61,162 bases of DNA from an uncultured Bdellovibrionales bacterium (lineage in GTDB: Bacteria; Bdellovibrionota; Bdellovibrionia; Bdellovibrionales; UBA1609), in assembly GCA_938001965.1 (NCBI GenBank), contig CALLBC010000062.1, positions 1 to 61,162 on the forward strand, given 5' to 3'. The position numbers were made by a program, and so were the translations under genes. Positions 8,762-48,186 of the stretch are shown piece after piece; the stretch's first letter is position 1, and every line of letters starts with the position of its first letter. The notes beneath the pieces were generated by a model that did not search any database, was not told where the DNA came from, and was given only the letters and a program-made list of their open reading frames with translations.

Positions 8762-11563
8762 CTATTTTTTTCTAACCGCTGAAATTTCTTTTTTTGCAAT
8801 ATTAGTCATATTCCAATGGCTACCACCAGATGTAATTCCTTTACGTACTTCATTAATTTTTCCAGCATGGTTTCTAGCCCAAGAGAAGAGTTTAGCTGCA
8901 GTACTTTCTTCAGTGCTACCCTCAGCTTCTATATTAAGAAGTTCGTTGATATCAATGACCTTGTCCTTTTGAAATGAGACATACTCAATCCATGCATCAA
9001 CAAGATCGTCTGTATTTTTGGCTATTCGTGGGTCTGTGCGGTTCATAAGAGATCTAGCAGTTTTATTGTTATATCTATATATATCAACGGCTAAGAGCTC
9101 TGTGGTGTAGTTTAAGCGGTATATATTTCTATAGGCTGCTACTTCTTCATTTAAAATTAGATAAACTTGTCCACTAGAGGACAGGTCCCATGCCCCGGGT
9201 CTTACTTTTTTTATTATTAAGCTGTGTTGAACCTCTCTGTAAGATCTAGGAATATGTGTTAGTCCAAAAATTGATCTTAAGGCGGATAACCAAGTAATAC
9301 GAAACTCAACGGGGTAGTTAAAGCTCTCTTGCAGTATATCGTCAAGTTCATTGCGGTCCATGGTTGCAATTTCTTCCGTTGTTAAAGCATGATATATGTT
9401 GTTAAAGTCAATGTTACTGTTAGGCATTTTGTTATTTAAATCATCGAGCATGTCTTCTGCTACTGTATAACCTTCAATATTCTTTATGAGCTTAAGGCAA
9501 GCTCGTTGTCTTTTCTGGCGACTGTCTTTGTGGCGAGCAGTTTCAATCTCAATTTTGTTGTAATGGCTCAAGTATCTGCATAAAGGGTAGAGAACATTCC
9601 TGGTGCCATGGACAAATTTAGGGTCTCCACTTATGCCTGAAAATAATGAGCGTTGAATGCTAGCCCCAGGGGAAAGGTCTGTTTTCGTCATGGATAATGT
9701 TGCTGAAGATAAAATTCTATAGGTAGCAACATATATTGTAGGAGCAGTAATCATAAAATCAATTAGTTTTGCTGGCCCCATCATTGCTACTTTACCCAGT
9801 ATTCCAGCCACTTGCTTTGCGCTTTTTGCCATTTTTTTCTTTAGTTTCTTTCTCTTTCTCTTTTCTTTTTTGTCGTCCTCAGGACTTTCTTTATTATCTG
9901 TGTTATCTTTGCCGTGCACTTCTGTGCTCACGCCACCTAATAAGGCTTGTAAATATTTGTCTGGGTTTTTAATACTGTTTCTACTCTGTAGTTTTTGATT
10001 AACTAAGCGGCCAGCGCGGGTTGCACTGGCCGCTTTTTTTCCTTTACCGACGGCTGATTGAACAACGTTCATCCCAGAAATTAAATTGGTAAACTGTTTG
10101 GCTCTTTTAAGAGTGACAAAGTTTCTAATCAAAACACCTGTTGTATAAGACACAGTAAGGGCTCTAATGGTTTCTCTTCTAAAGTATTCATCAAATATCA
10201 CCTTTGAAGGGTCAAAATTACTTACTGCTTCATAATAGGGAAAGTCAGTTCCTGGATTATTAATGGCATTAGCTTGCTTGGCGCCAATCATATAAGAATA
10301 GAAACGATGTAATACATAAGATTGCTTCATGCCTTGATATATCAAGTAAGACATAATCACTGGCTCAACACCTAAAGTTAACACCAATTTGAATTTTGCA
10401 AAGATGATTGGTGCTTTAGTAAACATAAATTTTAAAACGTCACCATCAATAATAGTTGAAAGTGCTCCACTAATTCCAGCAGACCAAAGTGATTTACTGC
10501 TAATAATCATATGCAAGAGCTGATTAAAACCAACATCAGTAAGGTTAATTGAGCTTCCTTCTCCTTTTCTAAGACCAAAAGCAGCGGGATCTTTACTGGC
10601 CATTTTGGGTAAGCTATGGAGCAGTGCCATGTTATTTTGATGGTAATCATTGGTAGTTACAGCAGCGCCAAAGTTACCAAGCTTACTAAATAAGTTAGAC
10701 TCTAAAAGCTCAAAGTACTTTGTTGTTCTAGGGTCATCTTGAACAGCAATGGCATCTCGACGTTTATGCCCTGAGAGATCATCACCATAAAGAGTTTGTT
10801 CAGATTTTAATCCAATTAAAGCCTCTTCTTTTTCAGGTGATAGTAATCTTTTTTCAGCAGAAAAGTTAAATAGACCGGGCTTTGTTTGCGAGGCTACCTT
10901 ACGTTTTTTAAATTTTGTTAAATTACTGGCAAGTAAGTTATCTGAAATTTCATAAATAAATGCTCCATCTTTTGTGTAGCCACCAAAATTCATGGCAGAT
11001 AAAAAATCCACTACTTGTACAGCCAATAAATGGTTAGTGATTTTGTTGTAATCTTTTTTATCTTTGGTAATTTCGGCAAATAGTTTCTGCTGAATCACCG
11101 TAGAGAAGCCTTGGAACCAAATATTTTTTTGGTCATTAGATTCAGGGAGCACTGATAAATCAATTATAGCATTGTTAGTGAAGTCACTGCTTTTTAAATC
11201 TCTAGATAGGAGCTCAATGCCATTCAAAAAATTATCTGTTGTTGTATCAAATTTAAGTAAGTCTTTAATGTCCGCATTAGTTATTTCATGATTATATTTT
11301 TTCTTGATTGTAAATTTAAGCTTACTTTTATCAACTATGTTACTTCGAGATGAGAAAACTTCAATAGCGGCATTGTTATCTGGAAAAAATGGCTCTTCCT
11401 TTATTTTTTCTTGAATAACATCTTGCTCTGCTTGTTCAAGACTTTCTTCCAAAGCTTGTTCATTATTGTGGCTGTATTCTTGCTCATCAACACTGTTTTT
11501 TGTGTTAAAAAAATAAAAACATAAGCCTGCGACTAAAATAAAACTAAAAAGATACTTTTTCAT
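8762..11563 (-). CDS. Large orphan membrane-associated/exported protein (933 aa)
   Basis: Uninterrupted 2.8-kb ORF. It has an N-terminal anchor (MKKYLFSFILVAGLCFYFF), an acidic stretch, central hydrophobic helices (e.g. APIIFAKFKLVLTLGVEPVIMSYLIY) and a Lys/Glu-rich run (DDKKEKRKRKKLKKKMAKSAKQ). No catalytic motif recognised. Confidence 0.7.
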   Translation of the reverse strand: MKKYLFSFILVAGLCFYFFNTKNSVDEQEYSHNNEQALEESLEQAEQDVIQEKIKEEPFFPDNNAAIEVFSSRSNIVDKSKLKFTIKKKYNHEITNADIKDLLKFDTTTDNFLNGIELLSRDLKSSDFTNNAIIDLSVLPESNDQKNIWFQGFSTVIQQKLFAEITKDKKDYNKITNHLLAVQVVDFLSAMNFGGYTKDGAFIYEISDNLLASNLTKFKKRKVASQTKPGLFNFSAEKRLLSPEKEEALIGLKSEQTLYGDDLSGHKRRDAIAVQDDPRTTKYFELLESNLFSKLGNFGAAVTTNDYHQNNMALLHSLPKMASKDPAAFGLRKGEGSSINLTDVGFNQLLHMIISSKSLWSAGISGALSTIIDGDVLKFMFTKAPIIFAKFKLVLTLGVEPVIMSYLIYQGMKQSYVLHRFYSYMIGAKQANAINNPGTDFPYYEAVSNFDPSKVIFDEYFRRETIRALTVSYTTGVLIRNFVTLKRAKQFTNLISGMNVVQSAVGKGKKAASATRAGRLVNQKLQSRNSIKNPDKYLQALLGGVSTEVHGKDNTDNKESPEDDKKEKRKRKKLKKKMAKSAKQVAGILGKVAMMGPAKLIDFMITAPTIYVATYRILSSATLSMTKTDLSPGASIQRSLFSGISGDPKFVHGTRNVLYPLCRYLSHYNKIEIETARHKDSRQKRQRACLKLIKNIEGYTVAEDMLDDLNNKMPNSNIDFNNIYHALTTEEIATMDRNELDDILQESFNYPVEFRITWLSALRSIFGLTHIPRSYREVQHSLIIKKVRPGAWDLSSSGQVYLILNEEVAAYRNIYRLNYTTELLAVDIYRYNNKTARSLMNRTDPRIAKNTDDLVDAWIEYVSFQKDKVIDINELLNIEAEGSTEESTAAKLFSWARNHAGKINEVRKGITSGGSHWNMTNIAKKEISAVRKK

Positions 11564-25062: not shown

Positions 25063-25875
25063 ATGAAAAATTTCGTACTAAAAACAGTAATATTCGCATT
25101 ATTCATTGTTATGATAATTTTCTTATCACAACAACCTGCTCATAACGAAGAGCAGGCCAAAAAGGTTTCACAAGGTCTGACTCAGTCTCTTAAGAGTGCA
25201 CAAAATGAACTCTTGTTGGTTTTGGGGGATGATTCAACACTAAAAAAAGAAATCAAAGATTTAAAGCTAGCCTATACAGGCTGTAAAGGCTCAAACACAG
25301 ATTTATTACCGGACTTTTTATATAATAAAGAAACGGGTTTAGTTGAAATTTGTAATGTGACATTACTAAATAGAACTACTGATTTTCCTCAGCGTTTAGT
25401 GTATGAGTTTTTTACTGATCACCAATTATGTATGAACTCGCCAAACGATACGGTAGAGAGAATATGTAATGATCGTGACAGAGATCAGCGTTATGCAGTG
25501 AATAGAGTATTAGCTAGTCATGATAAAAAAAGCACAAACCTTTTAACACTAAATGTAGATTATGGTGATAGAAGCAGTGTGTTTATGGTAATGACGGGGA
25601 ATCAATCTAAATTGGCCTATAAAACTAGTTATGGCGCCGAAGCACTACTTCAGTTAGAAGAGGAAGATATTACTTACTTAAAGAATCAGCTCACTAAAAT
25701 TGACAGAAAGTTTTCTAAGCCTAAGTGTGACCGCCGAGTGATTAAATTATTTGCTCTAAATGATAGGGGACAAAGGTTTAGGTCTTATGCCTGTATTGAG
25801 GCCATTAGCAAACATACACAAAAGTTATTAAAGCTGGCTAGAACTGTGAGTTCTTTCACTAAGAACACTTTCTAA
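25063..25875 (+). CDS. Hypothetical membrane-anchored/exported protein (270 aa)
   Basis: N-terminal hydrophobic segment (FVLKTVIFALFIVMIIFL) and several Cys. No recognised motif. Confidence 0.6.
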   Translation: MKNFVLKTVIFALFIVMIIFLSQQPAHNEEQAKKVSQGLTQSLKSAQNELLLVLGDDSTLKKEIKDLKLAYTGCKGSNTDLLPDFLYNKETGLVEICNVTLLNRTTDFPQRLVYEFFTDHQLCMNSPNDTVERICNDRDRDQRYAVNRVLASHDKKSTNLLTLNVDYGDRSSVFMVMTGNQSKLAYKTSYGAEALLQLEEEDITYLKNQLTKIDRKFSKPKCDRRVIKLFALNDRGQRFRSYACIEAISKHTQKLLKLARTVSSFTKNTF

Positions 25876-25879
25876 GAGT

Positions 25880-26064
25880 CCAAATCTCTGAATAAATATT
25901 TAAAAAATTTCCCCTTTCCTTTTGATTGAGTGCGCTTACGGCAGCATCGCGTCTTCGCGCTTTGTCACCTTTGCAGGTGAACACAGCGCGGATACGCGAA
26001 GCGCGACGCGATACTCAAGCAAAAGGAAAGGGGAAATTTTTTAAATATTTATTCAGAGATTTGG
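25880..26064. repeat. Foldback element, copy A (52-nt arms, 81-nt GC-rich core)
   Basis: 25880-25931 is the reverse complement of 26013-26064 with 1 mismatch in 52. The core 25932-26012 is 72/81 identical to 47231-47311. Starts 5 nt after the stop codon at 25873-25875. Confidence 0.85.
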
Positions 26065-26094
26065 GTAAGTAAAACTGATTCGAAAAAAGCTTTA

Positions 26095-26216
26095 CTAGCT
26101 TAGCTTTCTTCTGTGAAGCCTTATCTAAAACGAGTTCGGAGCGCAAAGGGCAAAGCCCCCTGAGCACCGTATGTCTGAGGCTTTAGATAAGGCTTCACAG
26201 AAGAAGGTTAAGCTAG
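26095..26216. repeat. Second long hairpin (35-nt arms, 52-nt loop), unrelated in sequence to the foldback family
   Basis: 26095-26129 (ctagcttagctttcttctgtgaagccttatctaaa) pairs with 26182-26216, with 2 mismatches in 35. The loop contains a gggc-aaa-gccc mini-hairpin. Confidence 0.75.
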
Positions 26217-26276
26217 GGCTGGGTAGTAGTAAATATCAATTGCAAGAGCTAGCTAAATCCTATAAATTATTGGCTT

Positions 26277-27233
26277 ATGGCAAAAATTTCTTCAGCATCG
26301 ATTAATAAAATTAAGTCTTGGTCAGCTCTTGAGCCAGGCGACATTGTGGACATAGTTGCCCCATCTTCTGGCAGTGATAGAAAGGGTCTAAAGCAGGCTA
26401 CCGACTTTATTCGTTCAATGGGCCTTGTGCCGCGATATCAAAAAGGAATTTTTGGAGCAGATTTATTATGTGCAAGCTCTGATGAAAATCGTTTTAAGCA
26501 ATTAAAAAGAGCAATTGCAGCAAAGGATTCCAAAGTTATTTGGTGTTTGCGAGGAGGGTATGGCTCGGCAAGAATTTTACCCATGCTTGATAAATTAAAA
26601 ACTCCAAAAGTAACTAAGCTTTTAATTGGCTATAGTGATATCACTCACTTGCATATGTTAGTAAATTATAAATGGAAATGGCCAAGTTTGCATGCATCTA
26701 TGTTAGAAGAGCTAGGCACGGGGCATACTACTAAACAGGAAGTGAATGACTTAAAGAAGATTTTATTTGGTAAAAAAGATAGCATTACCTTTAAGAATTT
26801 AAAGCCCTTAAATAAACAAGCCCGAGTAAAGAAAACAATTCATTCAAAAATTACTGGTGGTAATTTAACAATTTTAATGGCCTCTTTTGGTACGCCTTTT
26901 CAGGCTCATGCGAAAGGCCAAATTTTAATGTTAGAAGATATTGGTGAGCGCGGTTATAGAGTGGACAGAATGTTAGTTCAGTTAAAGCAGGCCGGGTACT
27001 TTGCAAATCTTAGAGCCTTAATTTTTGGTGACTTTGTGGGTGGTGAAGAAAAGGACTCAGTGTCTTTGTGGAAGGATGTGCAAAAGCGTTTTGCGGCATC
27101 AGTTAGTTTTCCTGTCCTTAAAAATATGCCTAGTGGCCATTCATTAAAACAAAGGCCCGTACCACTAATGACAAAAACTAAATTAAACTTAGGTATGAAG
27201 CCAAGTATAGAAATCTCAACGGGAATCAAATAG
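26277..27233 (+). CDS. ldcA: Muramoyltetrapeptide LD-carboxypeptidase (peptidase S66)
   Basis: IVDIVAPSSG, LRGGYGSARI, the GYSDITHL nucleophile motif, LEDIGERGYRVDRMLVQL, and late SGH. Confidence 0.85.
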   Translation: MAKISSASINKIKSWSALEPGDIVDIVAPSSGSDRKGLKQATDFIRSMGLVPRYQKGIFGADLLCASSDENRFKQLKRAIAAKDSKVIWCLRGGYGSARILPMLDKLKTPKVTKLLIGYSDITHLHMLVNYKWKWPSLHASMLEELGTGHTTKQEVNDLKKILFGKKDSITFKNLKPLNKQARVKKTIHSKITGGNLTILMASFGTPFQAHAKGQILMLEDIGERGYRVDRMLVQLKQAGYFANLRALIFGDFVGGEEKDSVSLWKDVQKRFAASVSFPVLKNMPSGHSLKQRPVPLMTKTKLNLGMKPSIEISTGIK

Positions 27234-37124: not shown

Positions 37125-37514
37125 TTCCACTCACATTTATTTTTTTAGGTAGGTATTGCTCGCACGCAGTTCCGTTAACAAGGGGCTGTCCGTAGTGTAG
37201 CTTCTATGTACTAAGGTTATTTAAGTACGAGTAGTTATGCTACCGAGCCTTCCATTCACACTTTGTTTTGGGGTAGGTATTGCTCGCACGCAGTTCCGTT
37301 AACGAGGGGCTGTCTGTAGTGTAGCTTCTACGTATTAAGGTTATTTGTGTGCGAATAGTTGTGCTACCGAGCCTTTCACTCACACTTTGTTTTGGGATAG
37401 GTATTGTTCGCACGCAGTTCCGTTAACGAGGGGCTGCACGAAGTGTAGCTCCCGCGTTACCACGGCTGTTTGAGTACGAGCAATACCTACCCCAAAACAA
37501 AGTGTGAGTGGAAG
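37125..37514. repeat. Three tandem ~125-nt units closed by a 37-nt inverted arm
   Basis: Units run 37125-37249, 37250-37373, and 37374 onward. Units 1 and 2 are roughly 85-90% identical. Unit 3 keeps the first ~70 nt, then diverges and ends in 37477-37513, the reverse complement of the unit 5' arm (37374-37410). Confidence 0.85.
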
Positions 37515-37953
37515 GCGAGGACCCTTTTTGGGACTAGGCACTTACACCATTTAGTGATTTTTGCCCCATTCTCAACAAAATATGTTATAAAAATATGCAT
37601 TCCCGCCCCCTATATTGGCTTTCAAGCCCAGCATAACTCGCTGCAATATAATTTTTTTTTAGTTTTTTGTGACGAAATTTGGGACCAAAAGTCGAGGCTA
37701 ATTCAATTTTTTTTAGAGCCTTTAGGCGCCCGAGTTTGGTCCATAGATGTGGAAAATACCAAGACAAATTACTTACATAAACCCGACTTATTAAGTGTAT
37801 AAAGTTAATTTTTTAACCCTTAAATCCAGTCTAGTTTGGAGGAAGAGCCAGGAAACTACTTGCGACAAAACCAAAATCCTGTCAGACTTTTATAGAGTCG
37901 GGCAATGGAGTCCAAACGTATTTATTAACCATAGGATTTGGGAGGGAGCAAGG

Positions 37954-40347: not shown

Positions 40348-40902
40348 ATGGCAAATGGAATAAAAATTGGGGCAGTTATTATATCATTAATTGGTGTGAC
40401 CTTACTTTTTCAAAACTGTATTGTTAAGAATGATGAGAAAGGGCAAATTCAGTCAGTACAAAATTTTCCGCAAACTTTTGATAAAATTATTTTAAGTTCT
40501 GGCTATAGTGATGAGGACTCTGAGTTATCCTCTTATATGGAAATAGATTTCAATAGTAATACAATTGGTGCAAGTGCTCGTTCAATGACTGAGGATGGGT
40601 CAATGTGTGATCAAGAAGTTTCTTTGGACGATGAAACTAAAAATACAATTATGGCTAAATATAAAACCGCAAAACTTTGTGTAACATTTTTAAAACCATC
40701 TCCTGATACTGTATGTACTATGGAGCTTCGAGAGAATGATTATTTAAAAGTATTTTCTGGAGACAAGATGCAGCTCAATGCAACATTGTTAGGTAAAAAA
40801 TGTGGACACTCCGGGGCTACTGATGAGCTATGTGAGGGTGGTCCAGAGCTTTTGACATATTTAAAGTCTTTACACTCAGAAGTTTCTGCCGCCTGCAATT
40901 AA
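40348..40902 (+). CDS. Hypothetical exported/lipoprotein (184 aa)
   Basis: N-terminal hydrophobic segment ending LFQNC, and several Cys. Confidence 0.5.
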   Translation: MANGIKIGAVIISLIGVTLLFQNCIVKNDEKGQIQSVQNFPQTFDKIILSSGYSDEDSELSSYMEIDFNSNTIGASARSMTEDGSMCDQEVSLDDETKNTIMAKYKTAKLCVTFLKPSPDTVCTMELRENDYLKVFSGDKMQLNATLLGKKCGHSGATDELCEGGPELLTYLKSLHSEVSAACN

Positions 40903-40903
40903 T

Positions 40904-42283
40904 TTAAATCTCAGCAATCTCGCCAGTGCTGTCGCCAAATTTTGCAATGTTAACGCCATAACGTTTCATAATGGTTAACCATAAGTTAGTGAGTGGTTGC
41001 TTTTTATTACTAGTAATACCAGTTTTAATACGACCATTGGCGCCACCAGCAAGTGCAAAAAATAAATTGTCTGCCATATGATGTGGTCCCTTGCTTTGGC
41101 AGCTGCCGTGTACAAGTAGTGTTTTGTCTAATAAACTTTTACCTGTTGGGTCTTTGCGAGCTTCCATTTTTAAAGCAAATTCAGCAAAGTTTTTAGTGTG
41201 CCACCTATTTATGAGTTTGAAGTCATGAGCGTTATGAGCCAGATCTGAGCTGTTGCCTTGGTAAGCCTCACCTTTAAGCTCTCCATCAGTATGTGTGGCC
41301 GTGTTGTAATGGGAGAGTCCATGCCATATGTTATTGCCACTTTTAAAGCCAGTCATCCAACTGTGTTTTAGTGTGCTTGAGGGCATAGCTCGCATAATAC
41401 TACTGTTATAAGTCAGTTCACACTCATGGGCTAATATTTTTAACTCCTGCATAATATCTAGTCGTTCTTTATAAGTTGTAGAGACATAAGCATCCAGGTC
41501 TTTGTTTAGTTGTGGGTCAATTTTGCACTCAGCACTGACTTGTTCTAAGTTTGCAATACTTCTTTCCACTTCGCGAATACTTGTAAAGTACTGATCAAGT
41601 TTTAATTTGTCTGCGGTACTCACTCTTCTGTTGAGAGACATAATCCCATCTTTAACCACATCAAGCACACTTAATAGGCCGGGCTTAGATGTATTATTGT
41701 TGTTATTTGAATCAAAAGCAAAAAGCTTATTATATAGATCCTTGGTGCTAAAGTAATAGGGGATTGGTTTGCCAGGGCCTTGCCACGAAAATACACGGAA
41801 AGGTAAGCCATGGTTAGGGCTAGTGTGCATATTTATATTAAAAGATCTTATGGGAGCATTTTTAGCGCTAGCGTGAGCATCCACTAAATATTGGTCAAAG
41901 GTTTTAGTAAAAGCAGCATGGCTTTCTGAAGGGCGAATTTTTTCAAAGCCCGTCACTCTAAAAGCTTGTCCACGGGTGAAAGAAAGAAAGTTTTCCATAT
42001 GTGGGTGAGCAAGAGGTGTGTGACGGTAAGGATTGTTTAGCTTTGCAAAATAGCTATATTTACTTCCAAGAATTTTTAACTCATCAATCATATGGTCTGG
42101 TGTGAAGTTGTTATCTTCTTCGGCATAGAATCCATTAGGAAAAAAATCAAAGATAAAGTGTGGGGTGCTTTGAGCTGCGTATGCATTTTTGTTGAGGATC
42201 ATAACATCAAGTGCTGGCAGAGCAAGCGTATAGCCCATGCCTTTTAGGAAAGTTCGTCTGTCTAGATGCCATTTTTTTTTCAT
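40904..42283 (-). CDS. DUF1552-family protein with twin-arginine signal
   Basis: MKKKWHLDRRTFLKGMGYTLALPALDVM is the typical DUF1552 Tat-like N-terminus. Lies directly downstream of its usual DUF1588-type partner. Confidence 0.75.
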   Translation of the reverse strand: MKKKWHLDRRTFLKGMGYTLALPALDVMILNKNAYAAQSTPHFIFDFFPNGFYAEEDNNFTPDHMIDELKILGSKYSYFAKLNNPYRHTPLAHPHMENFLSFTRGQAFRVTGFEKIRPSESHAAFTKTFDQYLVDAHASAKNAPIRSFNINMHTSPNHGLPFRVFSWQGPGKPIPYYFSTKDLYNKLFAFDSNNNNNTSKPGLLSVLDVVKDGIMSLNRRVSTADKLKLDQYFTSIREVERSIANLEQVSAECKIDPQLNKDLDAYVSTTYKERLDIMQELKILAHECELTYNSSIMRAMPSSTLKHSWMTGFKSGNNIWHGLSHYNTATHTDGELKGEAYQGNSSDLAHNAHDFKLINRWHTKNFAEFALKMEARKDPTGKSLLDKTLLVHGSCQSKGPHHMADNLFFALAGGANGRIKTGITSNKKQPLTNLWLTIMKRYGVNIAKFGDSTGEIAEI

Positions 42284-46454: not shown

Positions 46455-47171
46455 ATGAAAGTTATAATAAGTTTGTTGTTAATAGGGATGTTTTATACCG
46501 CTGGGGCTTTTGCTGAGGAAGTGACTGTGGGTAAGGTGAGTAAATCTGGTAAAAAGGCTGTTATATACATTCCTGAGGGAATGACTGTGGAGACGGGCCA
46601 AACATTAGTGATTGGCGGTGGAGAAAGTAAGGGGCAAGTGATGTTGCCTTCAGGAGTCTCTGCAAGAAACAAAGCTATTAGTGGAAATTTTAGCTTTTTT
46701 TCAGATACAGCAGAAACTACGATTGTTGGTCAAACCCCAGGATCAAGTGAACAAACCTCAATGGCTCTTGGACTAAATTATATTAAAAATAATGTAAATT
46801 TTGAGTTTGGTGGAGGCTTAACATACTCAAGTAGCTCAACCACAACGAAGAAAGATAGTTCTTATGGGTTGTCTGGTTTGTTTGAGTATAACTTTATGCC
46901 CAATAAACCAGGCACAACTGTGGTTGCTCATATAGGGGGAGAGCTGGGTTATGCTAGCGGCTCCAGTGAGACTAATACAGGCAGTAAGGATGAGAACTCA
47001 GGGTTAAAGTATGGAGTGTATGGCGGTGTTAAGTACTTTATGTTTCCAGCAAGTGGTTTTGCAATACAGGCTGATCTTGTTTATTTAATTGATAATTCTT
47101 TATCTCAGGATAACATCGATATTTCTGTTTCTAGGCTAGGGTTAAGAGCTGGAGTAAGATACTACTTCTAA
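46455..47171 (+). CDS. Outer-membrane beta-barrel protein
   Basis: Signal peptide ...YTAGAFA, Gly/Ser/Tyr-rich alternating strands, C-terminal GVRYYF. Confidence 0.65.
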   Translation: MKVIISLLLIGMFYTAGAFAEEVTVGKVSKSGKKAVIYIPEGMTVETGQTLVIGGGESKGQVMLPSGVSARNKAISGNFSFFSDTAETTIVGQTPGSSEQTSMALGLNYIKNNVNFEFGGGLTYSSSSTTTKKDSSYGLSGLFEYNFMPNKPGTTVVAHIGGELGYASGSSETNTGSKDENSGLKYGVYGGVKYFMFPASGFAIQADLVYLIDNSLSQDNIDISVSRLGLRAGVRYYF

Positions 47172-47179
47172 TTCAATTT

Positions 47180-47362
47180 CAATGCTCTGAATAAATATTC
47201 TTAATAATTTTCTTCAACTGTTACTAGAGTGCGCTTACGGCAGCATCCCGTCTTCGCACTCTATCACCCTTACGGGTGAGCACAGCGCGGATACGCGAAG
47301 CGCGACACGATACTCTAGAAAAAGTTGAAGCAAATTTTTAAAAATATTTATTCAGAAATTTG
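47180..47362. repeat. Foldback element, copy B
   Basis: Core 47231-47311 is 72/81 identical to copy A. The termini share ctctgaataaatatt. The arms are imperfectly self-complementary (~85% by eye). Begins ~9 nt after the stop at 47169-47171. Confidence 0.8.
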
Positions 47363-47376
47363 GATATTTTAATTAG

Positions 47377-47405
47377 ATAAAAAAAGCCACATACCCGGTA
47401 TGTGG
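47377..47405 (-). terminator. Rho-independent terminator for the 47437..48186 gene
   Basis: On the minus strand: gccacata-ccggg-tatgtggc followed by a run of T (the plus-strand A run at 47377-47384). Confidence 0.7.
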
Positions 47406-47436
47406 CTTCAAGTGAAAGGCTTTTAAAATTTAATGA

Positions 47437-48186
47437 TTAGTTGTTGCTAGTTGGGTTTGGGTTAAGAGCAGCATCAACTTTATCAAAACGAGCTAATAAA
47501 GAACCAGGTATTTTTACAGTTCTATCTTCAACAGACTTAGCTAACTTCTTAGCATCGTCAAATCGATTAGCTTCAATTAACATGTCCATATAAGCTTCTG
47601 TAACAGTTACTTGAAGTACATCTGGCTTTGAAGCTAGGATAGACTCAAAGTAGTCCACAGCAGCATCTGTGTTACCTTGCTTAGATAAAACTTTAGCAAA
47701 GTAATAAGCCGTCATTAAGTCTTCACCTTGATTAGTAAAGTAAGCACTTAAAGTTTCGTGAGCTTGCTCATAGTTTTCTAATTGATAATGTAATTTTCCT
47801 AATTTTTTAAGAACTTCTAGGTTGTTTGGATTGGCAGATAACTGCTCCTCTAATGATGACTGTACACAATCAATCATTTTTCTTTCTAAACAAATTTCTT
47901 GTAAACGGTTGTAGTTACTTTCGTCACCCATACCAACTGAGATCATTGCTTTATGTGGAATAACTTCTAATGAGTGGTTGCCCCAACGAACACTGTGTAA
48001 GAATGAGCCTGCAGTAATTACAGAGATACCTAGCATAATTAATATACTACTGCGATTTCTTTTTTTAGTACTAAGCTCTTCAGCGTTTGAATCCATATGC
48101 CCGCAGTGATTACAAATTACTGGTTTATATAGTAAGCGATCTTCGCTAATTTCTGATTTACATTTAGGACACGTTCCGTAGGTCAT
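47437..48186 (-). CDS. Zinc-ribbon / single-TM / TPR-repeat protein
   Basis: CPKC...CNHC N-terminal zinc ribbon, TM segment SILIMLGISVITAGSFL, and a C-terminal TPR-like region (NLEVLKKLGKLHYQLENYEQAHETL...). Confidence 0.6.
   Translation of the reverse strand: MTYGTCPKCKSEISEDRLLYKPVICNHCGHMDSNAEELSTKKRNRSSILIMLGISVITAGSFLHSVRWGNHSLEVIPHKAMISVGMGDESNYNRLQEICLERKMIDCVQSSLEEQLSANPNNLEVLKKLGKLHYQLENYEQAHETLSAYFTNQGEDLMTAYYFAKVLSKQGNTDAAVDYFESILASKPDVLQVTVTEAYMDMLIEANRFDDAKKLAKSVEDRTVKIPGSLLARFDKVDAALNPNPTSNN

Follow-up and report, generated by a model that had tools for sequence, protein, structure and literature searches.

What is the near-perfect hairpin that stands directly behind a stop codon at positions 25880-26064 of the window, the whole 61,162-nucleotide stretch of DNA analysed here? 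The original prediction, made from the letters alone, offered three identities: a foldback MITE, a 3'-UTR stabiliser or terminator module with a protein-binding core, or a structured non-coding RNA. We argue that this hairpin, hereafter copy A, is a member of a dispersed family of non-coding foldback elements of about 185-190 bp, non-autonomous, mobile or recently mobile, and of the MITE/REPIN kind; we give this reading a probability of about 70%. The family is previously undescribed, and it is a bacterial repeat of a familiar kind, not a new kind of system.

Rich in AT, the window contains housekeeping genes: it encodes RNase III, Era, Der, Mpl, MutS, GlnD and Ffh and a purine-synthesis cluster, among others. 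In public MAGs, distant homologues of its Mpl ligase (about 57-60% identity) occur under the names Bdellovibrionales or Pseudobdellovibrio, and three closer Mpl relatives have 84%, 82% and 73% identity. We refer to the window as species 1, to the 84% relative as species 2 (L004, L005 and L020-L024, from JGI samples 3300005647, 3300009073 and 3300027509), to the 82% relative as species 3 (L006 and L025) and to the 73% relative as species 4 (L007). The window contains two copies of the element, A and B, each behind a gene on the same strand:

25063-25875, + strand: 270-aa gene upstream of copy A, with its stop codon 4 nt before that copy
25880-26064, + strand: copy A, the entire foldback (inverted repeat; fold z = -21)
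25880-25900, + strand: left conserved end of copy A, CCAAATCTCTGAATAAATATT, with its mirror image at 26044-26064
25901-25931, + strand: left variable arm, AT-rich and pyrimidine-rich, pairing with 26013-26043
25932-25957, + strand: left block of the core, nearly invariant, GCGCTTACGGCAGCATCGCGTCTTCG, conserved in 16 copies from three species
25958-25988, + strand: variable tip of the core, including the small hairpin TCACCT-TTGC-AGGTGA (25965-25980)
25989-26012, + strand: right block of the core, nearly invariant, CGGATACGCGAAGCGCGACGCGAT, an imperfect mirror of the left block
26013-26064, + strand: right arm of copy A, with 98% complementarity to 25880-25931
46455-47171, + strand: 238-aa gene upstream of copy B, with its stop codon about 8 nt before that copy
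47180-47365, + strand: copy B (arms 47186-47230 and 47312-47356, core 47231-47311; nhmmer E = 5e-51)

The arms of copy A (25880-25931 and 26013-26064) lie exactly where the original prediction had placed them: they are 52 nt long and 98% complementary, with one mismatch (A opposite G), and enclose an interval of 81 nt. The full 185 nt fold at -118 kcal/mol, compared with -41.6 +/- 3.6 kcal/mol for 200 dinucleotide shuffles (z = -21). The GC-rich character claimed for the 81-nt core is real, at 61.7% GC against 27-29% in the arms and 36.5% in the window. With a profile model of the family (nhmmer), the match to copy A stretches to about 25879-26067 (E = 7e-57). The second core at 47231-47311 was likewise recovered, equal in length to that of copy A and identical to it at 72 of 81 positions; the arms of copy B are 45 nt each and 89% complementary. 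The left variable arm (25901-25931) is only about 52% identical between copies A and B, as counted over alignment columns, yet is complementary to its partner inside each copy. The sequence CTCTGAATAAATATT occurs at both ends of both copies, with five matches where 0.5 would be expected by chance. The proximity to plus-strand stop codons that had been reported for both copies also holds: since the upstream ORFs end at 25875 and 47171, the palindrome of copy A begins 4 nt past a stop codon, and in copy B the homologous end lies about 8 nt and the paired arm 14 nt past one. The 270-aa gene has no Pfam family and the 238-aa gene has no Pfam or NCBIfam match.

Profile searches of the window and of the fetched loci identified 19 independent copies, distributed over three related genomes of uncultured Bdellovibrionota-like bacteria: two in the window, one in L006 and 16 in species-2-type contigs, where L013, L016 and L018 contain second copies and L004 and L020 one each. 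A degenerate pattern of 23 bases from the left core block, CGCTTACGGCAGCATNNCGTCTTCG, built from positions conserved in the L006 copy, retrieved 12 metagenome loci, all of them in the three JGI samples that hold species 2. Density in DNA that was not chosen for containing a copy is about one per 30 kb, which by extrapolation suggests a genome total on the order of 100 copies. The family is narrow, since a 20-base core word, GCGCGGATACGCGAAGCGCG, has no real match in 185,579 reference genomes, where it gave two chance matches only, within GC-rich coding regions. Viral contigs produced a single chance match to this word and none to the 23-base pattern, and blastn of the foldback element against plasmid and phage collections gave no match. 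At the gathering threshold, no Rfam family matched the window or 13 loci; a permissive Rfam scan of 25800-26300 returned generic hairpin matches to miRNA precursors and sRNAs only, the best being mir-316 with 29.7 bits against a threshold of 80. The literature on Bdellovibrio repeats or MITEs contained nothing relevant to this foldback family in our search. The original prediction was thus right that the element is absent from Rfam, and its count of two was an understatement: following the core into related genomes, as it had proposed, yields at least 19 copies in three genomes. The outcomes that it had named as fatal, a core belonging to a described RNA family or a total of two copies, did not materialise, with no Rfam match and 19 copies.

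The anatomy of the family can be read from an alignment of 16 copies from three species (alignment A2). Elements measure 176-193 bp. Their conserved ends, with the consensus CCAAATCTCTGRATAAA and its mirror image, are kept in most copies; a further written form of the ends is CCAAATCTCTGGATAAA, and on the scale of a copy they read CCAAATC ... GATTTGG. The arms that follow, of about 30 nt, are AT-rich, the left one being pyrimidine-rich; they are homologous between copies and diverge fast. The core is a GC-rich quasi-palindrome of about 80 nt, composed of two nearly invariant blocks around a variable tip that contains a small hairpin. As core lengths vary from 75 to 86 nt and are not multiples of 3, the element is non-coding; by inspection, the arms contain stop codons in every frame. 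Most columns of the left block (25932-25957) are invariant or at least 90% conserved in the 16 copies, and the right-block motif GAT[AT]CG[CT][AG]A[AG]GC is conserved in 16 of 16. Among eight close copies, pairwise divergence is 22-27% in the arms versus 4.9% in the core. Between species at site A, the locus of copy A, core identity is 72% and the flanks cannot be aligned.

The core had been described at first as asymmetric, which holds for a small part of it. In minimum free energy and consensus folds it mostly acts as a quasi-palindrome that extends the hairpin: GCGC, GC, GC, TCGCGT and TTCGCGCT on the 5' side have partners on the 3' side, and the only unpaired elements are a TTACG internal loop opposite GAC, with a conserved TTAC inside it, and single-base bulges. 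The helix ATCGCGTC/GACGCGAT suggested for the core is not the one that the copies preserve. Helix 2, formed by the left block with the right block, has 14 pairs, with 96.9% of cells paired; it includes a T·G pair that is invariant in 16 of 16 copies and pairs on the plus strand only. The tip hairpin (25965-25980) is preserved through changes from T-A to C-G.

Pairing is maintained far more strictly than sequence. Within a single copy, the arms have 1-3 mismatches in 38-55 nt, with the exception of copy B (5 in 45). The RNAalifold consensus contains 59 pairs, 43 of them with compensatory double changes. We tested an explicit 65-pair structure on the 16 copies, with controls that included sliding the partners by 1-3 columns: 93.7% of cells pair, versus 36-49% with slid partners, and both sides have changed in 44 of the 65 pairs, versus about 21 in both controls. 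For the arms, this applies to 40 of 45 pairs (16 copies). Mismatches within pairs fall into 36 G·T, 22 A·C and 29 transversion cases, a distribution that shows no enrichment of G·U when G·T and A·C counts are compared. The plus and minus strands fold with a mean difference of -0.24 kcal/mol, the plus strand being the stabler in 10 of 17 copies. Watson-Crick symmetric covariation combined with equal folding of the two strands gives the pattern of a DNA palindrome, unlike that of an RNA selected on one strand.

Orthologous sites differ in occupancy between the related species. At site A, behind the 270-aa gene, the comparison is based on orthologues of this gene in L004, L006 and L007. The site is filled in species 1; in species 3 (L006) it holds a diverged copy whose arms differ in sequence and once more pair with each other (2 mismatches in 45); in species 2 (L004) it is held by another foldback family, Y; and in species 4 (L007) it is an empty spacer of 104 nt. 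Site B, behind the 238-aa gene, is filled in species 1 and consists of a plain 12-bp terminator hairpin in species 3 (L025). A third site is empty in the window:

40900-40906, no strand: empty site, TAATTTA, with two convergent stop codons 1 nt apart (184-aa gene; HXXSHH/DUF1552 protein)

In species 2 (L020), the spacer orthologous to the single nucleotide at window position 40903 has grown to about 490 nt and contains copies of an 80-nt element, X, together with a full foldback copy at 2352-2534, whose 3' end and the convergent gene's stop codon are 1 nt apart. Three independent contigs (L021, L022 and L023, positions 1-50) begin inside the right arm of this L020 copy. Base-level resolution of the element's ends was obtained at only one end of a single copy, and the sole clean pair of empty and filled sites involves a composite insertion.

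The check for target-site duplications that had been suggested was carried out by inspection of 17 flank pairs and detected no consistent direct repeat. TA is present on both flanks in only two copies (L016 and L013); T or TA often follows the right end, not the left. Among about 45 window ORFs and 20 ORFs beside copies, Pfam and NCBIfam searches found housekeeping and unknown proteins and no transposase or RAYT-like gene; PF01797 (RAYT, Y1 transposase) has no match among these ORFs. A larger element or full-length insertion sequence with the ends of the family was found neither in the 61-kb window nor beside the copies. With no such element and no transposase or RAYT-like gene, we infer mobility from distribution only. 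The foldback MITE of the original prediction therefore stands in part: a mobile foldback repeat fits best of the identities listed, because the family is dispersed, has filled and empty sites, contains nested repeats and breaks assemblies inside its copies, whereas the target-site duplication and partner transposase were not found in the flanks and ORFs surveyed.

At the hairpin tip, five cores contain an insertion: element X alone in four of them, and X together with foldback family Y in one. Element X (GTCTTTTCG...GGGCTAA) is inserted exactly before CGGATACG in L011, L016 and L018, and at the corresponding place of the core in two diverged copies (L013 and L018); in the frame of the window copy, this place is just after the variable tip (25958-25988). 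The core in L017 carries X plus a 190-nt foldback Y, and an additional copy in L013 has lost most of its core. Overall, 6 of the 19 copies have an interrupted or deleted core, with insertions of 80-270 nt.

Several observations concern these companion repeats in their own right. We located X at L008 4990-5073, L011 9845-9929, L016 13173-13253, L018 5055-5147, L013 10082-10161, L012 10342-10422 and L020 about 2038-2340. It also occurs, as GTCTTTTCG...CGCTTATTACGGGCTAA, in solitary form (the L008 copy) and as several adjacent reverse-oriented copies in L020, where the 184-aa gene takes its stop codon from the first X copy and a spurious ORF of 63 aa is called within the X copies. When X sits in a foldback core, it is at the tip and invariably directly in front of CGGATACG. 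Element X and the left block of the core have the motif CGCTTA..ACGG in common. Family Y, a foldback of about 190 nt, is found at L004 3253-3504, L013 4016-4204, L011 5097-5304, L017 4392-4575 and L015 2907-3083. The window has a second foldback, unrelated to the first, at 26095-26216, 30 nt downstream of copy A, with 35-nt arms that are 94% complementary and a 52-nt GC-rich core; GSCTCAGRCATACGGTGCTCRGG and CTCCGAACTCG in this core also occur in a foldback of L012 (about 10300-10470), which has different arms and carries X at its tip. Judging from these common core sequences, the two look like members of a further family, Z, with the same plan. At site B of species 2 (L020 10724-10800), we noticed by eye, below the profile threshold, an apparent 20-nt X fragment, TTATCGCCCTAACATAAGCT, followed by a right-end-like piece, AATTTTATCCAGAAAATGGGGTTA; this may be a decayed copy of the foldback family.

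The 19 copies are located in convergent (9), co-directional (7) and divergent (3) spacers, and the flanking genes are all housekeeping, such as those for BamA, LpxL, DnaJ/ClpS, ALAD, Maf and alanine dehydrogenase. In 14 of the 19, a co-oriented gene has its stop codon 0-86 nt before the 5' end of the element (median about 13), and in 10 this distance is 3-18 nt. The copy of L020 adjoins the stop codon of an opposite-strand gene instead. Co-directional spacers contain five sense copies versus one antisense, a difference that is suggestive without being significant (one-sided p about 0.11). Orientation agrees with GC skew in a ratio of 13:5, which is not significant either and is confounded with gene direction. 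Our scans showed no promoter-like sites at or in copies A and B. They showed no terminator-like sites in 25700-26400, and in 47000-47600 only a separate hairpin at 47383-47409 (- strand). This hairpin, 18 nt from the 3' end of copy B, is a canonical intrinsic terminator for a TPR gene, with a 12-bp stem followed by a T-run; ordinary terminators are therefore used alongside foldbacks in this genome.

A purely selfish palindrome does not predict the 5:1 sense bias or the location of 14 of 19 copies near co-oriented stops, which could point to a use at the RNA level. The element would then be a cis-acting 3'-UTR module of the upstream mRNA that blocks 3' exonucleases, serves as a target for RNase III (encoded in the window at 2289-2975) or stalls terminating ribosomes, the core acting as a protein-binding knob; stalling is proposed because the hairpin begins no more than about 15 nt past the stop codon. 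The ten copies that start 3-18 nt after a co-oriented stop speak for such a module, as does the invariant T·G pair of the core, which pairs on the plus strand only. In E. coli, REP elements reportedly stabilise upstream mRNA, and they are said to lower translation when within 15 nt of a stop codon. We nevertheless consider this explanation unlikely. The sense bias may be a matter of chance or of replication direction, given its p value and the confounding 13:5 skew; three copies occupy divergent promoter spacers, another lies antisense, and in L020 the copy borders the stop codon of a gene on the opposite strand. Mismatches contain no excess of G·U and folding has no strand bias, neither U-tract nor terminator-like site accompanies the element, and cores tolerate insertions of 80-270 nt and a deletion. 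Mobile spread and host use as a 3'-UTR RNA element are not mutually exclusive, and an RNA-level side effect on the upstream gene is possible.

The same position past stop codons, and the great stability of the hairpin, would suit a duplicated intrinsic terminator or an ordinary gene-end hairpin. This terminator module, one of the identities first put forward, is barely credible: no T-run follows the stem, the scan of copies A and B revealed no terminator-like site, a canonical terminator (47383-47409, - strand) sits beside copy B, the orthologous site of L025 has a plain 12-bp terminator instead, and 19 copies in three species have a common conserved 80-nt core. Copy number and anatomy thus refute a duplicated terminator. 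A stand-alone family of structured non-coding RNA genes, 6S-like or encoding another long-hairpin RNA, would explain a length of about 185 nt, strong covariation and a long, irregular hairpin whose internal loop is conserved; against it, the covariation is Watson-Crick symmetric with no G·U enrichment or strand bias in folding, no promoter-like site was found at or in the element, the generic Rfam hairpin matches stay far below gathering scores with no family at threshold, copies recur about once per 30 kb at orthologous sites that are filled or empty, and cores are interrupted or deleted in 6 of 19, tolerating 80-nt insertions. The structured RNA of the original prediction is accordingly highly improbable. 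Conservation of the core across species could equally mean a host function, and two nearly invariant blocks kept amid changing surroundings would be expected of a cruciform or protein-binding DNA site that serves chromosome organisation or regulation; the core would then be the bound sequence, and the spread of the repeats would be secondary. By inspection, the ends resemble a DnaA box at 8 of 9 positions (TTATCCAGA versus TTATCCACA), but this resemblance fails in the CACA portion of the consensus, and both window copies have only the degraded form TTATTCAGA; moreover, locations are not conserved between close relatives, and copies decay, interrupted or deleted without apparent constraint. We regard such a host site as improbable.

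An integron attC site was also considered and rejected. Such sites are defined by R''/R' core sites (RYYYAAC ... GTTRRRY) in cassette arrays beside an integrase; here the ends read CCAAATC ... GATTTGG, a distance of 21 kb separates the two window copies amid housekeeping genes and Pfam scans identified no integrase. We likewise considered and dropped 6S RNA, retron msr/msd and a coding potential of the core.

The mobile foldback repeat that we favor is the best-supported reading, and its logic is closest to that of REPINs. REPINs are REP doublets that fold into hairpins and are mobilised by RAYT (TnpA-REP) tyrosine transposases, the RAYT gene usually being flanked by REPs. They have conserved inverted GC-rich blocks and a variable spacer that keeps its length and pairing via compensatory changes, which are reported to be common in the variable part of the hairpin (PMC3116915). 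Like the REPIN/RAYT (TnpA-REP) system, this family is extragenic and multi-copy, with one long hairpin of about 80-190 nt; its two GC-rich blocks (25932-25957 and 25989-26012) are imperfectly inverted around a variable, compensating segment, no target-site duplication is seen and gene 3' ends are preferred. Unlike in REPINs, the REP-like blocks occupy the hairpin's tip instead of its foot and are wrapped in 50-nt AT-rich arms with conserved ends of their own, and a RAYT was not found among the scanned ORFs. Many REP families have a GTAG (CTAC) tetranucleotide at the REP foot, a feature that is absent from the two conserved blocks here.

Classical bacterial MITEs with long terminal inverted repeats include the Correia elements of Neisseria, the enterobacterial ERIC/IRU and the QMITEs of Coxiella. 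The present family resembles them as a non-coding element of 100-200 bp with terminal inverted repeats that would form a hairpin when transcribed, located near gene ends, sometimes supplying stop codons and varying in presence between strains. It has the small size (a MITE being under about 300-500 bp) and non-coding nature, the shared terminal inverted repeats and the dispersed copies of a MITE, with three orthologous sites filled or empty depending on the species; neither TA nor any other target-site duplication was detected in 17 flank pairs. It further differs in its mid-arms, which are hypervariable yet complementary, and in its conserved GC-rich core, which has no counterpart in Correia, ERIC/IRU or QMITEs. 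A third likeness is to palindrome-associated repeats derived from IS200/IS605 and moved as single-stranded DNA. These too lack a terminal duplication and depend on hairpins, and they tend weakly to co-orient with replication (13:5 and not significant here). The unpaired loop of the core contains a conserved TTAC, the tetranucleotide that IS608 uses as its cleavage and target site. Elements of this group, however, have two separate subterminal hairpins and asymmetric ends, whereas ours is one whole-element foldback, and the scanned ORFs included no Y1 (HUH-type) transposase. Given a module at the tip within long arms, the lack of GTAG and the lack of a known RAYT, we file the family neither as a REPIN nor as a classical MITE.

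We may hypothesize how such a foldback repeat spreads. The element is probably handled as a single-strand hairpin, in which the core and its conserved internal loop would be recognised by a trans-acting enzyme from another locus of the genome; the arms would be free in sequence and need only zip up. Copies would land in promoter-free spacers beside stop codons, with no evident duplication of the target. The near-perfect arms could result either from hairpin-competent copies alone propagating or from templated correction within a strand (quasi-palindrome repair). A bolder and rather doubtful proposal is that the family and X, Y and Z together are the footprint of an undescribed hairpin mobilisation system: a single-strand DNA enzyme encoded elsewhere would use the TTAC-loop core as its handle, each round would rebuild or correct one arm from the other, the tip would be a landing pad for X and insertion would take place just after stop codons. 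Arms that evolve fast and stay complementary would follow from such rebuilding or correction.

This analysis adds a well-defined repeat family, and at least three companion families (X, Y and Z), to a poorly known lineage of uncultured bacteria resembling predatory ones. The foldback family breaks short-read assemblies, and repeats of this sort generate spurious ORFs, such as the gene call inside the X copies of L020, and will confuse the annotation of intergenic RNAs. It is also a clean example from nature of long hairpin arms that evolve in concert around a conserved core, and could serve to test REPIN-like recognition and to ask what keeps palindromes perfect. Should the location beside stop codons prove functional, selfish repeats would be linked to the control of mRNA 3' ends outside enterobacteria.

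Elsewhere in the window, a 124-nt unit at 37125-37516 is repeated in tandem 2.6 times with 88% matches, and has an inverted partial copy at 37471-37516. Its neighbours are a glnD-like gene on one side and a luxR-type (GerE) regulator on the other, and a doubtful ORF of 110 aa overlaps it; L004 and L007 have long spacers at the corresponding place too.
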